The notes below the pieces were generated by a model, which saw only the letters and a program-made list of their open reading frames with translations, was not told the DNA's origin and made no database searches. Positions 13,225 to 64,000 of a DNA stretch of 64,000 bases are shown piece by piece (within the stretch, counting starts at the first letter, position 1; each line of letters begins with the position of its first letter). This DNA is from Octopus sinensis (lineage: Eukaryota). The stretch lies in assembly GCF_006345805.1 (NCBI RefSeq), contig NC_043013.1, positions 38,812,001 to 38,876,000 of the forward strand. The letters run 5' to 3'. Position numbers and translations under genes: made by a program.

Positions 13225-14730
13225 TAGTATTATAAATAGATGAGTGTATTTTACCTTGTTAACAATTAACACGGATAAATGAATGAATAGTTACCAGGGC
13301 AGAAAAATCTCACAAGTAAAGATGTTTGAACTCCTTGTTTATAAAGGTTGTGAAACTTCGTGTTTACGTTGAATATTGAATAATAGGATAAAAAAATGGA
13401 GTCAACGCAGTTTAAACAAGTATTTTTTCTTTCTACATATGTTTCAAAAATTCCACTGATACTTATTCAAAAGAATAAAAGGTATAAACAATGCAATCTT
13501 CTCTTCGGGAAAGTGAAAAAACGAAACTTGTCAATACGACATTTTAGCAAAAAAGATGGATTCGTATAGCGATAGACAGAACGCTATTAATATTGTTTAA
13601 AAAAACGTTATATGATATAACGTCATAAGTAGCTAACAGAAAGAGTAGGGATATTAATAGTGAATGTTAAATATAAAGGAAATTAAAGTCTAAACTATAT
13701 ATAATGATGAGACTACTTATATGCAACTAAAAGTATGCTTTTGCCAATGCTTACATCTGTATGCTCGTTCTATAACCGTGTTTACTAGAGTATTTTTAGA
13801 AAAAATAATGAAAAATAGCTCAGAATTGCAGAGAAGACAGAATTTCTTGCCTTTGTCATATGGTATCGAAATTGAGAGGATCAACCATTCCAAATGAAAT
13901 GTTCATTGTGGTCTTTTAAATTCCAAATCAGTTGCTGAGACCGGTACTATCCGTTTATTTCTATTCTAAATATCTGTTGAGTAATGGGATGAAATTCTCT
14001 TAGATAACTCTAACGATGTGCTTCCAATGTAAATCGTACTTTATTACGAGTACTGATTATACACTGGTATATAGAATTTTTAATCTTAGAGTTACTTGAC
14101 ATAAATTTAATTCTATTGGGATTGACTTCAGATACAATAACCTTGTTATTAATATTTCTAGAGGGTTGGATGGTAGTAGCTAAATTATGTTAGTATTAGT
14201 AAATGTATTAATATTTAACAGTTGTTATTATGAGAAAGATTAATTTGCAAGAGATTTTTTGTGTTTGAAAAACCTATCCTAACCTTATGTGAATTAATTA
14301 TAGAGTAATATCTAGAATTATTTGGAAAATTCCTAGCAATAGCTTGACGAAACAGCAGTGGGAGATTAGATTTAATTTGTCTCCCGTAAGGAATTATTAA
14401 CCAAATTTTTACTAGTATTCATAGCGTAATTACTTTTGAAGGTGTTATATTTACTTTTAGATCGGTAATAGGGGAATAAATAAGGGTTATCTGCCTTCAT
14501 TCGCTTTGTATCGGTGCGTAAGTTATGTTTGTTATCAATAATTCTTTTACGACTAGAAATCTTATCTACATTATGAATTTACAATTAGACTGAGCAGAAT
14601 CAATGTAGAAAATTTTTTCTGTATAACCTGCTTTGATTAAGGCAGAGTTATAGAATTCAGCGTTATTATTGAAAATATCAACATTAGCAGATAATTTAGA
14701 TAATCTAAATGAAATATTCTTAACTAAATT
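13225..14730 (-). mobile_element. 5'-truncated Penelope-like element (end of RT, linker, GIY-YIG and pLTR)
   Basis: Minus strand from 14730 reads NLVKNISFRLSKLSANVDIFNNNAEFYNSALIKAGY; later IYQC...FYIGST (GIY-YIG) and CLLCNSE; homologous to 50138-51577. Confidence 0.85.
13429..13513 (-). ncRNA. Minimal type I hammerhead ribozyme motif in the pLTR
   Basis: CUUUC-CCGAAGA-long stem II-GAAA-CAUAUG-UA-GAAAG. Confidence 0.65.
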
Positions 14731-15990
14731 CTTAATCAAAGCAGGTTATACAGAAAAAAATTTCTACATTGATTCTGCTCAGTCTAATTGTAAATTCAAT
14801 AATGTAGATAAGATTTCTAGTCGTAAAAGAATTATTGATAACAAACATAACTTACGCACCGATACAAAGCGAATGAAGGCAGATAACCCTTATTTATTCC
14901 CCTATTACCGATCTAAAAGTAAATATAACACCTTCAAAAGTAATTACGCTATGAATACTAGTAAAAATATTTGGTTAATAATTCCTTACGGGAGACAAAT
15001 TAAATCTAATCTCCCACTGCTGTTTCGTCAAGCTATTGCTAGGAATTTTCCAAATAATTCTAGATATTACTCTATAATTAATTCACATAAGGTTAGGATA
15101 GGTTTTTCAAACACAAAAAATCTCTTGCAAATTATATCTTCTCATAATAACAAACTGTTAAATATTAATACATTTACTAATACTAACATTAATTTAGCTA
15201 CTACCATCCAACCCTCTAGAAATATTAATAACAAGGTTATTGTATCTGAAGTCAATCCCAATAGAATTAAATTATGTCAAGTAACTCTAAGATTAAAAAT
15301 TCTATATACCAGTGTATAATCAGTACTCGTAATAAAGTACGATTTTACATTGGAAGCACATCGTTAGAGTTATCTAAGAGAAATTCTATCCATTACTCAA
15401 CATTTAGAGATAGAATAAACGGAATAGTACCGGTCTCAGCAAACTGATTTGGAATTTAAAAGACCACAATGAACAATTTCATTTGGAATGGTTGATCCTC
15501 TCAATTTCGATACCATATGACAAGGCAAGAAATTCTGTCTTCTCTGCAATTCTGAGCTATTTTTCATTATTTTTTCTAAAAATACTCTAGTAAACACGGT
15601 TATAGAACGAGCATACAGATGTAAGCATTGGCAAAAGCATACTTTTAGTGCATATAAGTAGTCTCTATCATTATATAGTTTAGACTTTAATTTCCTTTAT
15701 ATTTAACATTCACTATTAATATCCCTACTCTTTCTGTTAGCTACTTATGACGTTATATCATATAACGTTTTTTTAAACAATATTAATAGCGTTCTGTCTA
15801 TCGCTATACGAATCCATCATTTTTTGCTAAAATGTCGTATTGACAAGTTTCGTTTTTTCACTTCCCGAAGAGAAGATTGCATTGTTTATACCTTTTATTC
15901 TTTTGAATAAGTATCAGTGGAATTTTTGAAACATATGTAGAAAGAAAAAATACTTGTTTAAACCTGCGTTGACTCCATTTTTTATTCCTA
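14731..15990 (+). mobile_element. Inverted partial copy of the same Penelope-like element
   Basis: Near-identical reverse complement of 13384-14641; IYQCIISTRNKVRFYIGST at about 15305-15360; ends in (TA)n. Confidence 0.85.
15861..15944 (+). ncRNA. Minimal type I hammerhead ribozyme motif in the pLTR
   Basis: CCGAAGA (15865-71), GAAA (15928-31), CATATG, TA, GAAAG. Confidence 0.65.
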
Positions 15991-16073
15991 TATATATATA
16001 TATATATAATATATATATACTATATTATACTTATATACACACATACACACACACATACATATTATATATATAT

Positions 16074-30221: not shown

Positions 30222-31302
30222 GAGAGAGAGAGAGAGATAAATACACTTGCAAATACAAACTCTCACGCATACGCACATTTCTACACTTTTAAACGTACAT
30301 TTGCGTGTAGAATCACAGATTTTATTGAGAAAAGATAGGGAATTTATGTATCTAATGTTATCTAATGCTAGCCCCCCGCTCACATTATCAGTATAGGATG
30401 TTTTCTCACTTTTGGTTCTGCCGATATAATCAATGATATCACAGGCATGCCTATCGCATCTTTATTGTCTTTAACAACAAGTATTACATCAGCTGCAATA
30501 TTTAATGTGTACAATGACTTTAAGTTTAGACTGAGCTGCTATTGTTTCTTGTTAATCGGGAACAGGATAGAGGTTACATCATATTAAGACTTTTGTAGGA
30601 AACACTTGGCTTTGATTAATGATTCATGTGTTGGAAGATATTTCTTAACTCTATTACACTCTACATTTAGTAAGTTATTTACTGTATTTACTAGTCTTCT
30701 AATTAGTAAATATCTGTGAGAAACATCAAATTTAGTTCTATCTACAATCACCACACAACCACTCCGATGTATCTTTAACTAACTTGTATATTGCCAACCA
30801 ATAGAATATTGTGTAACGTAAGCATGACAAGTACTATAAAACGAATGAATAAGAACACTATTATGTACAAACTAGTATCCTCTGGACCATACTGATCACG
30901 TTTAGGCGATAAAGTACTTGAAGCAGCACTTCTGGTTTGACAGACACGCTTAAAATATTCCCCACTTCTAACTTATGATACTATGTCACCAACTGTTGAC
31001 AAAGATCATCTCGTAAGCTATAAAGGACAGAGGAAAAAACGACTGTAACCAGAAATTGTTAAGTTTCTAACAATTTCTGATAAAAATTTGTTCCAGCTGA
31101 AATGTCCTACTAACAAAACAATTTTGATCTCCCTGTCGTCTGCCTGTCACACAGAGTTTTATTTTCATTTCTTCTCTTTGATATGTCTGTATTCCTTTGT
31201 CTTGAAAATTTACAAATATTTCGTGATTTAATTGTCACATCGTCTTTGATTTCATTGTTTCTCATTTTGTTATTTCAGATATCAGCACACACTGGTTCAA
31301 CT

Positions 31303-33262
31303 ATGATTCACTTCAACATAATTGTATTCCTCCTAGGGCTCTTATCACCATTAGTTTATTCTCATGGTTGTCGTATGGAAGACGACGTGTGTGAGTTTAA
31401 GCTGGTAATTTCCTATAAATTAACTATGCTATACAATAAGATCTTGGTACTACCCCATAATGGAAAACTCTACAAATATGACGTCACTAATTTTACAAAT
31501 GCTCAACCGATACCAACTGATAAAGTCATTACGATGGATGGTTTCTCTGAGTCAGTTAAGGTGATTGCAGTTAATGGCACAGTTCCTGGACCAACAATAG
31601 AAGTTTATAAAGGACAAAGAGTCATCATTGAAGTAGAAAACCGATTATTTTCAGAATCTACAACAATACATTGGCACGGCATTCATCAAAAAGGAACACC
31701 TCATATGGATGGCGTACCTTGGGTTTCACAGTGTCCAGTTCAACCAGGTCAGTCGTTCAGATATGAATTTAATGTTACACAAACTGGAACTTATTGGTAC
31801 CATTCTCATCTTGGGACACAACGTACGATGGGACTATTTGGTGGTTTTATAATACACGAAAAGACAAAACGTAAAATGGAAGAACATGTGATGTTAATAA
31901 AAGACTACAACCATAACTGGGACTCCGATGTGAGTTACTTAAAAATGAAATTCGGATTCTATTGGAACCGTAAAAACATTGGCAGTTCCAAATCTCTAGA
32001 TGGGGCACATTTTAGTCTTTTTAATTTCCATTCTGGTATTGTGAATGGTCGAGGCCGTTATTATGATGAAACAGGGAAACATAATGGGGCTCCACTGACT
32101 GTCTTTGAAGTAGAACAAGGTAAAGAGTATCGTTTTAGAGTGATCGCTGCAGGGTACCTTTACCCGTTTGAAGTGTCTGTTGATGGTCACCAGATGGTAG
32201 TCGTTGCCTCTGATGGTTTTGACCTAAAACCAACAGCTGTTGATTATTTCATCCTCAGTCCGGGTGAGAGATTTGACTTTATATTGAAGGCAAATAACTC
32301 TGTCGGAAATTATTGGATTCGTGGAAAAACAATGGAAATTGAAAAAAATAATACATTTGAAGCAATTCTTCGTTATAAGGGTGCACTGGACGAAGAACCC
32401 AACTCCACGGTTTCTGACTGCGTTCAACAAAAGGACTGCACTTTACTCAACTGCCCCTTTCTTTATTATCCCGAGAAAAGTAATAAACGGTGTTTACAGT
32501 TTAATGACTTGGAACTTGATTACCCTGTTGTTGTACCTCCATACAAGTCTGGGAGGTTTGAGGAATATTTTTTAAATTTTGCTTTTCCTGGCGAGCCAGG
32601 ATACACACCAGCATCAGTAAATGGTCGTGTGTTCGTGGAACCCACGGTAAACCCTTTAACACAACCAAAAGAAATAGATAGTCTGTGTGATAATGCCAAC
32701 TGCGGTGTTGATAAAGTGTGTCGGTGTACTTATTCTATAAACCTGAAATATCGTGATACAATTCAAGTTGTAATGACAAATCTTGGAAAAGGTAAAGGGT
32801 TCTCCCACCCTATACACATGCATGGACATTCATTTTATGTAGTTAAAATGGGGTTTCCAAAATACAATGAAACAACGGGAGAAATAATAAATGATACTGT
32901 AGATATTGATTGCAGAGGTGATCCGAAAATGAACTATTGTAATGATGCGGTTTGGTCAAATAGCAACTGGGAAGGAGACAACATCCCCGGAATGAATTTA
33001 CGAACCCCCCCTCAAAAGGATACAATTATGGTCCCTACAGGTGGATACGTTGTAGTGAGAATAGTGGCCGATAATCCTGGAGTATGGATCATGCACTGCC
33101 ATATTGAATTACACAGTAAGGACGGAATGGCAATGGTTCTAAATGAATCTTTTGCCCACTTACCAAAAATCCCTGTCAATTTCCCTGCATGTCGAAGTTT
33201 CGAGAAAGGAGTTTATAATGAAGAAACAAAAGGTGTTGGTGATAAAAATACTTCAGAACACG
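31303..33262 (+). CDS. Multicopper oxidase (laccase-like, three cupredoxin domains), main coding exon
   Basis: Signal peptide MIHFNIIVFLLGLLSPLVYS after acceptor TATTTCAG (31278); all four Cu motifs HWHG, WYHSH, HPIHMHGH and HCHIELHSKDGM; donor CACG|GTAAGG at 33262. Confidence 0.95.
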
Positions 33263-33630
33263 GTAAGGAATAGTTTTCAATAACTTATTTTATCGTTTCT
33301 CAGCAATCTCGTTTCTTTTCTTTTCTTTTCTTTTCTTTTCTTTCTTTTTTTGTCTTTTTTTTATATCGTTGTCTTTTATCTTTTTCATGTTTCATTCATT
33401 GGAATACAGCCATGCTGAATCACCGCTTTGAAGGATTTAGTCAAACAAATCAATACTAGCACTCATTTTTAATCCTGGTACTAATTCTATCTGTCGGCTT
33501 TGTTGAACCACTGAGTTAAAGGAACATAAACAAACCAACTCCGGTTGTCTGATAGGAGACAAATGCTAAGGCGCATATACAGACACACATACACTTACAC
33601 CTACACATAAATTTATATATTGTTCATGTT

Positions 33631-33850: not shown

Positions 33851-34050
33851 TATATATTTTTCATGTAAGAATTCGATAAAATTTCGAAAGAACGTGAAAT
33901 AATTCTTTTTTGCGAACTTGACCTCGAAAGACATAAATGGAGATGTGGGTTCGGATCCCACAGACAGCTTTCGAATTTTTGTATCCAAATGTATTTTTGA
34001 ACACAATATCGAAATTTTGTTATTTATAGCATTTACGTGCTTCGAGATCC

Positions 34051-35034
34051 AGTTTATAAAGAACAAAGAGTCATCATTGAAGTAGAAAACCAATTATTTT
34101 CAGAATCTATAACAATACATTGGCACGGCTTGCATCAAAGAGAAACATCACATATGGATGGTGTACCTTGGGTTACACAGTGTCCAATTCAACTAGGTCA
34201 GACGTTCAGATATGAATTTAATGTTACACAAACTGGAACATTTTGGTACCATTCTCATCTTGGGACACAACGTACGATGGGACTATTTGGCGGTTTGATA
34301 CTACACGAAAAGACAAAACGTAAAATGGAAGAACATGTAATGGTAATCTCAGACTACAATCATGACTGGGATTCCGATATGAGTTTTTTAAAAGTTAGCA
34401 TGGGACTTTATGTGAATAACCAAAAGGTTGGTATTACCAGTTCTCTTGAAGGAGGGCTTTTTAGTCTCTTTCAGTTCAATTCCGGAACTGTGAATGGTCG
34501 GGGCCGTTATTATGATGAGTCAGGGAAACATAATGGGGCTCCACTGACTGTCTTTGAAGTAGAAACAGGTAAAGAATATCGTTTTAGAGTGATCGCTGCA
34601 GGGGCTCTGTATCCATTTGAAGTATCTATTGATGGTCACCAGATGGTAGTCATTGCCTCTGATGGTTTTGACATAAAAACAAAACACCTGTTGATTACTT
34701 TATCATCAACCCCGGTGAGAGATTTGACTTCACAATACATGCAAATAACTCTGTCAGAAATTACTGGATCCGCGGACAGACAATGCAAATAGACAAAAAT
34801 AATACATTTGAAGCAATTCTTCGATATAAAGGTGCACCGGTCGAAGAACCTAACTCCACAGTTTCTGACTGCATACAACAAAAGAACTGCACTTTACTCA
34901 ACTGTCCCTTTCTTTATGATCCCTATAGAAGTGATAAACCATGTTTAACTTTTGGTGACTTAGAATCTAATTATCAGGATGTACCGCCTTTCCGGTCTGG
35001 AAAGTTTGAGGAACAGTTTTTAAATTTTGTTTTC
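34051..35034 (+). pseudogene. Partial multicopper oxidase paralogue (domains 1-2) inside the intron
   Basis: Aligns to about 31603-32587; retains HWHG and WYHSH; one +2 frameshift near 34680; no signal peptide or domain 3. Confidence 0.88.
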
Positions 35035-35109
35035 TGCTATCAACTGCAAACGAAGATGAGATTCTCCGGGAATTTTAAAGGTAATTACTTTTTCCAGGTA
35101 TTTCTTTAG

Positions 35110-45729: not shown

Positions 45730-45767
<38 letters not shown>

Positions 45768-45992
45768 ATATATAATATATATAATATATATATAATAATA
45801 ATAATAAAAATAAAATAATATTAGGGAATAAATCCAAATTTACAGGGAAAAATCAGATTTAGGATTGAATCCAATTTTATAGTAAATATTATATAATATT
45901 AATTAGAGACAAAACCACTATTATGCAAATCAACAAAGAAGACTTATCCAATACATAAAAAATTTTATATAAATTAAATAAAATTAAGTTAT

Positions 45993-46038
45993 CCACTACA
46001 ATTGTTTCTTGTCACTTCTAAGGACATTCATCAGGTGG
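45993..46038 (-). ncRNA. Minimal type I hammerhead ribozyme
   Basis: Exact reverse complement of 46106-46151. Confidence 0.85.
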
Positions 46039-46105
46039 TTTTCAGACCTTCTATTCAATTTAAATTATGACTTCATAATTTAAAATTGAATAGAAGGTCT
46101 GAAAA

Positions 46106-46151
46106 CCACCTGATGAATGTCCTTAGAAGTGACAAGAAACAATTGTAGTGG
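46106..46151 (+). ncRNA. Minimal type I hammerhead ribozyme
   Basis: CCAC-CUGAUGA-A-UGUC/GACA-A-GAAA-CAAUUG-UA-GUGG; canonical core, predicted cleavage after 46147. Confidence 0.88.
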
Positions 46152-46365
46152 ATAACTTAATTTTATTTAATTTATATAAAATTTTTTATGTATTGGATTA
46201 AGTCTTTCTTTGTTTGATTTGCATAATAGTGGTTTTGTCTCTAATTAATATTATATATATATATATATAACAGGAAGCTTTATGAAAATAAACACAAGAC
46301 GAAGGCAGGTGGAATACAAACAAACAATTGTATTAGTATGGCGCTCAGGAATATAAATAAAACAA

Positions 46366-46405
46366 GTCTTTTACGTTTCGAGCCTACGCTCTTCAACAGA
46401 AAGAC
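46366..46405 (-). ncRNA. Minimal hammerhead-like motif (A6U core variant) in a TA-flanked element of about 200 bp
   Basis: GUCUUU-CUGUUGA-A-GAGC-GUAG-GCUC-GAAA-CG-UA-AAAGAC. Confidence 0.7.
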
Positions 46406-50137: not shown

Positions 50138-51577
50138 ATAAATAGATGTGTGTATTTTCCCTTGTTAACAATTAACACGGAAAATATATATAATAGTTAC
50201 CAGGGTAGCAAAAAATCACACAAGTAAAACGGTTTGTAACTCCTTGTATTTAAAGGTAGAAACTTCAGGTTTACGTGAAATATTTTGTATAATATAAATA
50301 AATAAATAAATAAATGTAGTTAAACGCAAGTGTTATTCAAATTCTTTTACTTTCGACACATGTTTCGAAGATATCACTGGTATTATTCCAATGGAATAAA
50401 ATAGTGTAAAACAATGTAATCTTATCTTCAGGGAAATGAAGAAATGAAACTCAATAAGACATTTTAATAGAAAATTATGGATATGTATAGTGATTAACTG
50501 AGTGCTATTAAGTTTGTTTCAAAAAATGTTATAGGATATAACATCAAAGGTAGCCTATAGAAAGAGGAGGGATAAAGGAAAGAAAAACTAAATAAATGAG
50601 AAATATATAACTATATGTATATTAAATAAAACCATATAGACTTGGAAAAAGAGATGACTAGTGAATGTGAAATGTAAGAAGAAAATTAATGTTTAAATTA
50701 TATATAATGATAGATATCACTTATATGAACTAAAGGTGTGTTTCTGCCAATGTTTACATTGGTATGCACGCTCTATAACCGTGTTTACAAGGGGATTTTT
50801 AGAAAAAAGAATTAAAAATAGTTCAGAATTACAGAGAAGACAAAATTCCTTGCTTTTGTCATAAGGTATCGAGATTGAGAGAATCAACCAATCTAAATGA
50901 AATTGTTTATTGTGATCTCTTAGATCCCAAATTAATTTACTAAGCCCTCTACTGTTACTTTATTCCTATCCCTAAATGTAGTGTAATGATTAGAAATTCT
51001 TTTAGATAACTGAGACGTGCTTTCTATATAACAAAAATACTTCATTACCAGTAGTAATTTTACACTGGTATATAGAATTTTTAATTTTAGAGTTACTTGA
51101 CATAAACTTGATTCTGTTGTAATTGAATTCAGATACAATAACCTTGTTATTAATATTTCTAGGGGGATGGAAGGTATTAGCTAAATTAATGTTAGTATTA
51201 GTAAATGTATTAATATTTAACAGGTTAATATTATGTGAAGAGATAATTTGTAAGAGATATTTTGGGGGTTGGAAAAACCAATCCTATCCGTGGGTGAGTT
51301 GATAATAGAGTAATACCTAGAATTCTTTGGAAAATTCCTAATAATAGCTTCACGAAACTGCAAAGGAAGATTAGATTTGATTTGCCTCATGTATGGGATA
51401 ATTAAACAAATGGTTTTACTATTAGTTACTTTATATTTAGTGTAACTATTTTTGAAAGACATAGATTTAGCTTTAGAACGAAAATAAGGGATTAAATAAA
51501 GGTTATCTCCCTTCCTCTGTTTGGTTTTGCTGTATAAATTAAAATTGATATCGTTTATATCCTTACAACCAGACATG
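50138..51577 (-). mobile_element. Diverged 5'-truncated Penelope-like element
   Basis: ORFs 51217-51582 and 50932-51138 are homologous to 14731-15600; same 3' region as 13240-13430; TA-rich flanks. Confidence 0.85.
50351..50436 (-). ncRNA. Hammerhead motif in the pLTR
   Basis: CUGAAGA-U-AAGAU...AUCUU-C-GAAA-CAUGUG-UC-GAAA; same position as in the 13.4 kb copy; stem I imperfect. Confidence 0.65.
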
Positions 51578-52319: not shown

Positions 52320-52772
52320 ATTGACATATAGACATCAATTGATTAGAACATAATGCAATTCTGAACGAATACAATTGTTTCCATGCCCAATTAATTTGAG
52401 AAATTAAATTAAATTAAGTTAAATTAAATTTTCATATCAAATATCGTTAATAGAGTATTTCGTCGGGGAAAGAATTTGATAGAAAAGACCTACATTCCGA
52501 TGTGTTGTTTGACCCTTGATAGACTCAGGTTGTTGAAGCGCACATATTTAAGTCTAACAAGGGTCAAATAGTACATCAGATGGCTCTTCTCTTTTCTATC
52601 AAATTTTTTTCCCTGACGAAATACCCAATTAACGATATTTGATATGCTAATTTAATTCAATTCAATTTAATTTCTCAAATTAATTGGGCATGGAAACAAT
52701 TGTAGGTGAAATTGAGTTTGTTATTGTTCAGAATTGTATAATGTTCTTATAAATTGATGTCTGTATGTCAAT
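52320..52772. repeat. Diverged foldback of about 450 bp with a hammerhead on each arm
   Basis: TTGACATATAGACATCAATT/AATTGATGTCTGTATGTCAA, CCATGCCCAATTAATTTGAGAAATT and its complement, TTTGACCCTTG/CAAGGGTCAAA. Confidence 0.85.
52611..52706 (+). ncRNA. Type I hammerhead ribozyme with long stem II
   Basis: CC-CUGACGA-..CCCAAUUAA...UUAAUUGGG..-GAAA-CAAUUG-UA-GG; the minus-strand partner at 52370-52469 has CCGACGA. Confidence 0.75.
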
Positions 52773-63381: not shown

Positions 63382-63854
63382 ATATAAAAGGGCTTAGTAA
63401 AAAAATACTTTGCCGCATAAAACTCATTAGAAATAGCAGCCAAAAACTTTTTTAAAGCTATTTCTAATACTTAAGAAAATCTCTCTCATATATAGTGTTT
63501 GCTTAATTCACTCACAAAGTTTGGGGGTAAGGACATCGAAAAATCAAATGCTAAGTTATTCGAGAACGTACGTTTCAAGATTAGTCAAAACACATTTCTA
63601 TCATCGGCTCAGAAATTTCTGAGCCGATGATAGAAATGTTGTTTGACTAATCTTGAAACGTACGTTCTCGAATAACCTTAGCATTTGATTTTTCGATGTC
63701 CTTACCCCCAAACTTTGTGAGTTGAATTAAGCAAACCTATATATGAGAGAGATTTTCTTTAAGTATTAAAATAGCTTTAAAAAGTTTTTTGGCTGCTATT
63801 TCTAATGAGTTCAGTATGCGGCAAAGTAATTTATTTTACTAAGCCCTTTTATAT
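63382..63854. repeat. Spacerless palindrome of about 470 bp with a hammerhead on each arm
   Basis: Centre AGAAATTTCT (63611-63620); arms differ mainly by small indels; (TA)n on the left flank. Confidence 0.92.
63621..63669 (+). ncRNA. Minimal type I hammerhead (U4C variant); mirror copy at 63562-63610 (minus)
   Basis: GAG-CCGAUGA-U-AGA...UCU-U-GAAA-CGUACG-UU-CUC. Confidence 0.75.
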
Positions 63855-64000
63855 TAATGTAATAATTTGAATTTGCCTTGAATGGTCCCTTTGCATACTG
63901 AACACTGGTGAAATTGATTAATAATTAATTAATTTTGCCCTCAATTGTTAAATATATATCTATTATATATATATAACACAACAATACGAATATGTATATA

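Follow-up and report, generated by a model that had tools for sequence, protein, structure and literature searches.

The foldback at 46 kb of the window (the whole 64-kb stretch of Octopus sinensis DNA that was analysed) probably consists of two head-to-head, intron-free copies of the 5′ leader of a Hydra-clade Penelope-like element (PLE), reverse-transcribed from spliced sense RNA and left as a dead end. A dead-end insertion derived from spliced sense RNA, rather than a retrozyme that propagates itself, is likely because the splice junctions are exact, the 5′ starts are fixed, the spliced forms have recurrent origins, a foreign exon occupies both arms of a related foldback (L299), and the geometry agrees with published PLE insertions. 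By itself, a palindrome with two hammerheads is known PLE debris; the part not met in the literature searched is the class of spliced-leader copies.

Layout of the foldback and its hammerhead motif

Self-comparison of the window revealed an inverted repeat at 45877-46270 with 96% identity over 400 nt (Table 1), and the foldback with a hammerhead on both strands that the earlier note had described proved to be real. The sequence around it, across the whole window, is rich in AT and microsatellites (assembly size, 2.72 Gb). The left arm (45887-46069) differs from the right arm only by four single-base gaps in homopolymer runs and at the centre, and the arms overlap by 1 nt at 46070. The four gaps are likely assembly errors; public contigs carry extra bases at two of the four places. 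The unit, described earlier as a 370-bp foldback, is asymmetric: a tail of ~75 nt, common to other copies of the family and missed by that description, adjoins the left arm only and has no partner on the right. The flanks are unmirrored, with no blast match between them, and the foldback sits inside (TA)n, where a target-site duplication is unreadable. It is non-coding, as had been stated, with no ORF past a 12-codon AUG frame that starts at stem II. On the right it is adjoined by a very abundant repeat, of high depth in public contigs, with a minimal hammerhead-like core on the minus strand (46372-46396; UUGAAGA, GCGUAGGCUC, GAAACGUA), and further single hammerhead-like cores lie at +44779 and +62039 of the window.

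Table 1. Features of the 46-kb foldback (window coordinates)
Feature	Position	Strand	Remarks
Target microsatellite (TA)n/(TAA)n, left	45730..45811	.	
One-sided PLE tail, ~75 nt, predicted hairpin	45812..45886	-	Recurs in copies; 29-mer matches; runs to ATG in L240, L241
Tail-bearing arm: 24 nt of exon 1, splice junction 46048/46047, hammerhead, AT-rich 3′ part	45887..46069	-	
Type I hammerhead motif, predicted cut 45997/45996	45993..46038	-	
Exon 1 of tail-less arm, 27 nt, first base the A of initiator-like TTACTTC	46070..46096	+	Matches the exon preceding the GT donor in unspliced copies; modal spliced-arm start
Splice junction GAATAGAAG/GTCTGAAAACC; ~1.1-1.3-kb GT-AG intron here in relatives	46096..46097	+	
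Tail-less inverted arm (exon 2), (TA)n at its end	46097..46257	+	
Type I hammerhead motif; A.A at stem II base, palindromic CAAUUG stem III; predicted cut 46147/46148	46106..46151	+	
Target microsatellite (TA)n, right	46258..46270	.	

The plus-strand motif reads, in order, CCAC, CUGAUGA (46110-46116), A, UGUC/GACA, A, GAAA (46136-46139), CAAUUG, UA, the predicted cut and GUGG, and 46038-45993 on the minus strand is an identical copy. CUGANGA, GAAA, UH and the three helices of a type I core are all present, and a strict hammerhead descriptor gave 2 matches in the window and none in any of 100 sequences of 64 kb simulated with a third-order Markov model. Stem III is palindromic and of the dimer type, in agreement with the earlier note. 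The base of stem II is A.A, without the G10.1-C11.1 pair, and stem I is 4 bp long. The covariance-model search that had been proposed, run with Rfam over the whole window, returned no hammerhead at gathering score and none at E ≤ 10, where only sub-threshold, hairpin-driven miRNA/snoRNA matches appeared. Because of the A.A at the stem II base and the absence of an Rfam match, the motif is classed by its sequence as PLE-type rather than canonical, the term first applied to it. At the same position relatives have A opposite A, C, G or U, or U-A, and T/T mismatches at the stem II base occur in the published Hydra rows (PMC8557442). Stem II ranges from 16 to 39 nt among copies with the boxes kept, a result for which the search patterns partly select. 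Basal stem II is conserved rather than covarying, and no formal covariation support is therefore claimed.

Among the first 100 core matches listed, loop III was GATC in 78, AATT in 18, GATT in 2 and AATC in 2, with predicted self-duplex energies of -10.0, -6.4, -5.8 and +0.3 kcal/mol, respectively. On these modelled energies, the amplified loop variants would be those able to pair with another copy, in line with the dimer model. The stricter statement that non-palindromic loops never amplify was rejected: GATT, common in one ORF-linked subfamily, was found in 11/19 ORF-linked hammerheads, and it self-pairs through G.U. A read-through transcript of the foldback, from either strand, is predicted to form a rod (-276.5 kcal/mol) in which the probability is ~1e-55 for stem I and ~1e-23 for stem II, and even in the leader alone stem I is predicted to be populated just ~2%. 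For these reasons the ribozyme is likely silent within the foldback, fully paired away. Each strand, moreover, has one sense ribozyme only, and the modelling speaks against the earlier claim of a transcript self-cleaving in either polarity. The long rod proposed with it stands as a prediction, though not together with an active ribozyme, since the two folds exclude each other. In the parent element the hammerhead is probably under selection and would work as a dimer; in the foldback it is a passenger.

The parent element and its relatives

Two loci, L240 and L241, carry the hammerhead, the arm, the tail, ~50-60 nt, the ATG and an ORF, followed by a TG-rich 3′ UTR, an exon, an intron and a second arm, with the hammerhead-bearing pLTR in direct orientation at both ends of the ORF. 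The tail is continuous with the ATG in both, and in ORF-bearing copies it constitutes the 5′ UTR. The ORF of the pair is 761 aa long in one and a 748-aa open frame in the other; L240 is damaged by a frameshift near the C-terminus and L241 by one early stop. With the leaders of L240 and L241 the window arm shares 92% and 87% identity. In 21/30 loci selected for an ORF, arm plus tail stop about 60 nt short of the ATG of an RT/GIY-YIG ORF, which bears out the Penelope derivation suggested earlier. Among the ORF-bearing loci examined, none combined an intact ORF with membership of the exact subfamily of the window foldback, and L278, the unspliced copy whose core is identical to that of the foldback, is truncated.

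The parent ORF contains SDKT, YRDD, the linker CxCX5C (NCTCRDKSKC) and CxxC..E..N..CxH (CYLC..E..N..CRH), is without CCHH, and has RIKWK at the RWK position (RMRWK in aligned homologues); the motifs of L240 were read across its frame break with X. Its RT motifs and YIG were recognised by alignment. An hhalign comparison of the ORF with an RT/GIY-YIG (RVT_1/GIY-YIG) PLE protein gave a probability of 94%, and a by-eye comparison showed blocks shared with the Hydra proteins in the supplement of PMC8557442. Pfam gave no match to the parent ORF, a PDB sequence search with the Hydra alignment gave nothing meaningful, and the named homologues of the protein are from octopods. The motifs and the by-eye block comparison with published proteins would place the parent in the Hydra clade, and it is highly probable that the foldback arms are the 5′ leader of an autonomous element of that clade. 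The parent family may already be present in Repbase or Dfam. Residues ~500-590 of the L240 ORF form an Asn-rich insert between RT thumb and linker, and similar inserts are reported for Adineta Penelope ORFs (PMC3846280). The PLE family at L164-L193 was rejected as the parent on its different hammerhead; this second young family is more abundant, many of its copies have 811-aa open frames, and in several the 3′ hammerhead is degenerate.

As described in PMC8557442, the Hydra clade shares with the octopus family the C-terminal GIY-YIG, DKT, CxCX5C, a hammerhead in the repeat, (TA)n insertion, and an inverted 5′-truncated copy with a tail on one end. The octopus family is longer (~5.5 kb versus <3 kb), has a longer tail (~75-80 versus 30-40 nt), and, unlike the Hydra elements of that account, has a ~1.1-kb intron before the hammerhead, the Asn-rich insert and hundreds of spliced leader-only copies. 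Hydra-1_Obim in the same source is a different family, with another protein and hammerhead.

The genome contained 47 matches to the exact 46-nt core, 1,519 to the core with free stem II and loop III, and 4,533 to a tail 29-mer at ≤2 mismatches, each with 0 matches for the reversed-pattern control. The short copies are located in (TA)n and are head-to-head foldbacks with variable centres or single arms. The genome-wide count and arm geometry that had been called for thus give a repeated system, as anticipated, which together with the other foldbacks of the window probably reflects ordinary PLE insertion behaviour. Exactly one tail was present in 30/30 paired arms of one sample and in 20/21 of a second, unbiased sample of 30, for which the exon references did not span all subfamilies and short starts were judged by eye. 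The 3′ ends of 123 arms were bimodal, at the arm end (49/123) or at the tail end ~80 nt further on (43/123). Centres vary by locus, except that the window foldback, L001 and L015 have one in common, for which a master copy could be an alternative cause.

Three other foldbacks of the window (13383-15991, 52320-52772 and 63382-63854) carry hammerhead-like cores but share no sequence with the 46-kb family. The earlier note had credited those at 52.3 and 63.4 kb with the same design in unrelated sequence; cores and unrelatedness were recovered, except that the 52.3-kb foldback passes the scan on its right arm only. In the latter the arms are 75% alike; its right arm shows CUGACGA, 73 nt in the stem II region and, at stem III, the same GAAACAAUUGUA. 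It is part of a dispersed, older family (77-88% identity between copies). The foldback at 63382-63960 has a minimal core, CCGAUGA/GAAACGUA, on both strands and a one-sided extension of ~100 nt. Elsewhere its family (L145-L163) forms ~545-bp head-to-tail arrays with inverted junctions, so it is this family, and not the 46-kb unit, that resembles a retrozyme. The 2.6-kb foldback at 13383-15991 (96%) has CCGAAGA...GAAACAUAUGUA cores on both strands and a related piece at 50651-51552. Its central ORF remnant (14654-15316) looks, by eye, like the post-thumb region of Hydra; no longer homologue and no Pfam family was found for it. Separately, L203 3717-5170 (G000:C1:148255700-148257200) contains five hammerheads at a 353-bp period plus one inverted copy (CUGACGA, stem II GAGGU/ACCUC, stem III CUCGAG) and is likely a tandem retrozyme. 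The window also includes a laccase-like multicopper oxidase open frame with three Cu-oxidase domains (31114-33270), with a broken duplicate downstream (34001-35106).

Splicing and the origin of the foldback

At L066 a 1.32-kb GT...AG intron separates GAATAGAAG from GTCTGAAAACC and the hammerhead behind it, whereas both arms in the window have these two sequences joined. When 30 loci were chosen by their upstream sequence, 30/32 exon matches ran into GT and 0/32 were spliced. Genome-wide, 1,758 acceptor-type matches (intron kept; control 0) and 842 GAAG-junction matches (control 7; a lower bound) were counted. Among 67 spliced arms, mostly from two subfamilies and with overlapping loci possibly counted twice, 63 began 8-29 nt before the junction, with a mode of 27, which is the A of an initiator-like TTACTTC/TCACTTC; the remaining 4 began 37-72 nt upstream. 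This distribution suggests transcription start at the A of TTACTTC, ~27 nt before the donor; the joined exons point to splicing of the element RNA at the junction. At the intron donor of one copy (L228), the donor G is followed by TTAGGG repeats. Four sequencing runs that are only guessed to be RNA contained no intron-skipping joint, a result that carries no weight for or against splicing.

The same stem II subfamilies contain both spliced and unspliced forms. On a 94-row tree (147 columns; 13 identical rows collapsed; unclassified arms excluded; bootstrap not settled) the spliced/unspliced label changed 10 times, at least 6 of them forced, which points to at least six origins of spliced arms, although gene conversion or template switching could scatter the labels. 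L299 1380-2030 (G000:C1:8144374-8145024) is a one-tailed foldback in which an LTR-retrotransposon exon is joined to the family acceptor in both arms. The exon is joined at the donor GAGAAG/GTAGGT, where a GT donor is present in 10/10 other LTR copies. Judging from these sequences, such a chimera is hard to make without spliced sense RNA, and we consider a spliced sense RNA the very probable template of the arms.

The likeness to Drosophila virilis Penelope, an element of a different PLE clade, extends to a pLTR intron soon after the transcription start with its 3′ end abutting hammerhead helix I, a small palindromic helix III, a tail and inverted terminal repeats (PMC2377424, PMC4209133). Its intron is 75 bp long and lies 46 bp after the start (PMC2377424), compared with ~1.1 kb after 27 nt in the octopus family, and its copies are described as intron-keeping (PMC2377424, PMC4209133), whereas spliced copies are abundant in the octopus. 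The Poseidon PLE PAc of Anolis resembles the octopus family in an AUG at the stem II start, a pair of discrete 3′ ends delimiting the tail, and AT-rich targets (PMC11167929). According to the same source, the ORF of PAc opens at the stem II AUG with the tail inside it, whereas in the octopus family the frame from this AUG is 12 codons long and the tail belongs to the 5′ UTR; PAc was assayed in vitro.

Published work supplies the elements of a mechanism. In the anole, the PLE protein introduces nicks in both strands of AT-rich DNA and extends them, beginning at two internal sites by which the tail is defined; insertion in vitro does not depend on hammerhead cleavage (PMC11167929). Inverted truncated PLE copies, a one-sided tail and microsatellite targets are likewise known (PMC8557442, PMC3846280). 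By analogy with the anole assays (PMC11167929), the RT/GIY-YIG protein would bind the tail region and nick AT-rich DNA on both strands, with cDNA synthesis beginning internally at the arm end and, ~80 nt away, at the tail end. If it began on the 5′ leader of the mRNA instead of the 3′ repeat, each cDNA would be just ~180-260 nt long when it reached the start of the RNA. The ends of both cDNAs would then be joined through 0-3 nt or AT-palindrome microhomology, which would leave a variable centre and one tail.

The joining of two cDNAs is only slightly favoured over hairpin priming, the leading alternative. The latter, which as a full account of the foldback we consider rather unlikely, keeps the spliced Hydra PLE leader but has the first cDNA fold back on itself and prime its own copying into the second arm, with later spacer flips masking the order. 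Locus-private variants are present in both arms of L006 and L112, and L299 has its foreign exon in both; these point to one template species for both arms and suit self-priming. So do the many centres compatible with a 1-3-bp hairpin closure or an AT palindrome, and self-priming has been proposed for Adineta PLEs (PMC3846280). However, a self-primed strand cannot exceed the copied strand at its 3′ end, so the loop should always belong to the tailed arm, which should be the longer. Among 18 foldbacks the longer 5′ start was on the tailed arm in 8, on the tail-less arm in 8 and equal in 2, and in the window itself it is on the tail-less arm. Two cDNAs account for the 8:8:2 split better than hairpin priming does, although the latter could be reconciled with it by later and frequent inversion of the spacer.

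An antisense template, i.e. the antisense transcript of a few already-spliced DNA masters, would make spliced foldbacks uninformative on normal transposition. It has been proposed for head-to-head junctions and intron retention (PMC3846280), and here all leaders before an ORF keep the intron (19/19 hammerheads preceding an ORF follow an intron acceptor). Spliced forms nevertheless recur in many subfamilies with matching exon ends, spliced arms stop at one 5′ position, and L299 holds a chimeric LTR-exon splice product, which together make this template improbable. Still less probable is the retrozyme-like unit that the earlier note had put forward, taken here as a foldback that propagates itself through RNA cleaved in either polarity, made circular and returned to the genome by Penelope proteins. 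Its cores are intact on both strands, the exact core has its 47 copies, one centre recurs in the window, L001 and L015, and animal retrozymes derive from pLTRs (bioRxiv 2026.07.22.740005). The same preprint describes non-LTR retrozymes that are, like the 46-kb unit, non-coding, pLTR-derived and equipped with type I hammerheads, but it defines retrozymes as head-to-tail tandem arrays, which are thought to circularise. The 46-kb unit is head-to-head with its ribozyme predicted to be silenced by the rod, its arms are spliced PLE leader, most centres differ between loci, and the short copies are not head-to-tail arrays, with the exception of one short partial tandem (L009). The near-perfect palindrome, arm differences that resemble homopolymer errors and the lack of any examined public contig spanning the locus could suggest a long-read artefact or a miniature inverted-repeat DNA transposon, but this is barely credible given the unmirrored flanks, the family-specific tail on one arm, dozens of loci of the same design with different centres, the existence of single arms, splice junctions and an RT parent, and the presence of the family in contigs of four independent DNA-type sequencing runs (none of which spans the 46-kb locus).

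Implications for Penelope-like elements

The origin of PLE inverted repeats and tails and the reason for intron keeping are stated as open in PMC3846280, PMC8557442 and PMC11167929, and the antisense template is proposed in PMC3846280 with the question left open. Opposite-strand dual hammerheads 100-700 bp apart, linked to truncated PLEs, were already noted in Schistosoma (PMC4209133). Spliced leader-only PLE foldbacks were not described in the literature searched (subscription papers, Repbase and Dfam lay outside that search). We argue that the hundreds of spliced leader-only copies form a class not met in that literature, and that they disfavour an antisense model of the PMC3846280 type and favour sense RNA as template, at least for short products.

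More tentatively, PLEs may routinely reverse-transcribe their own spliced leader from two internal starts and join the cDNAs head-to-head, a ~260-nt leader being sufficient. If so, the hundreds of mini-products would be a natural record explaining the inverted pLTR and the one-sided tail, a purely antisense template would be ruled out, and the ~260-nt leader alone would mobilise any upstream spliced exon. The junctions in both arms, the fixed 5′ start and the two fixed 3′ ends yield testable predictions on the template strand and the start sites, and the ~260-nt leader could serve as the smallest substrate in an in vitro assay. The dimer model could be tested on the natural hammerhead variants (GAUC, GAUU and AAUU loops; stem II of 16-39 nt).
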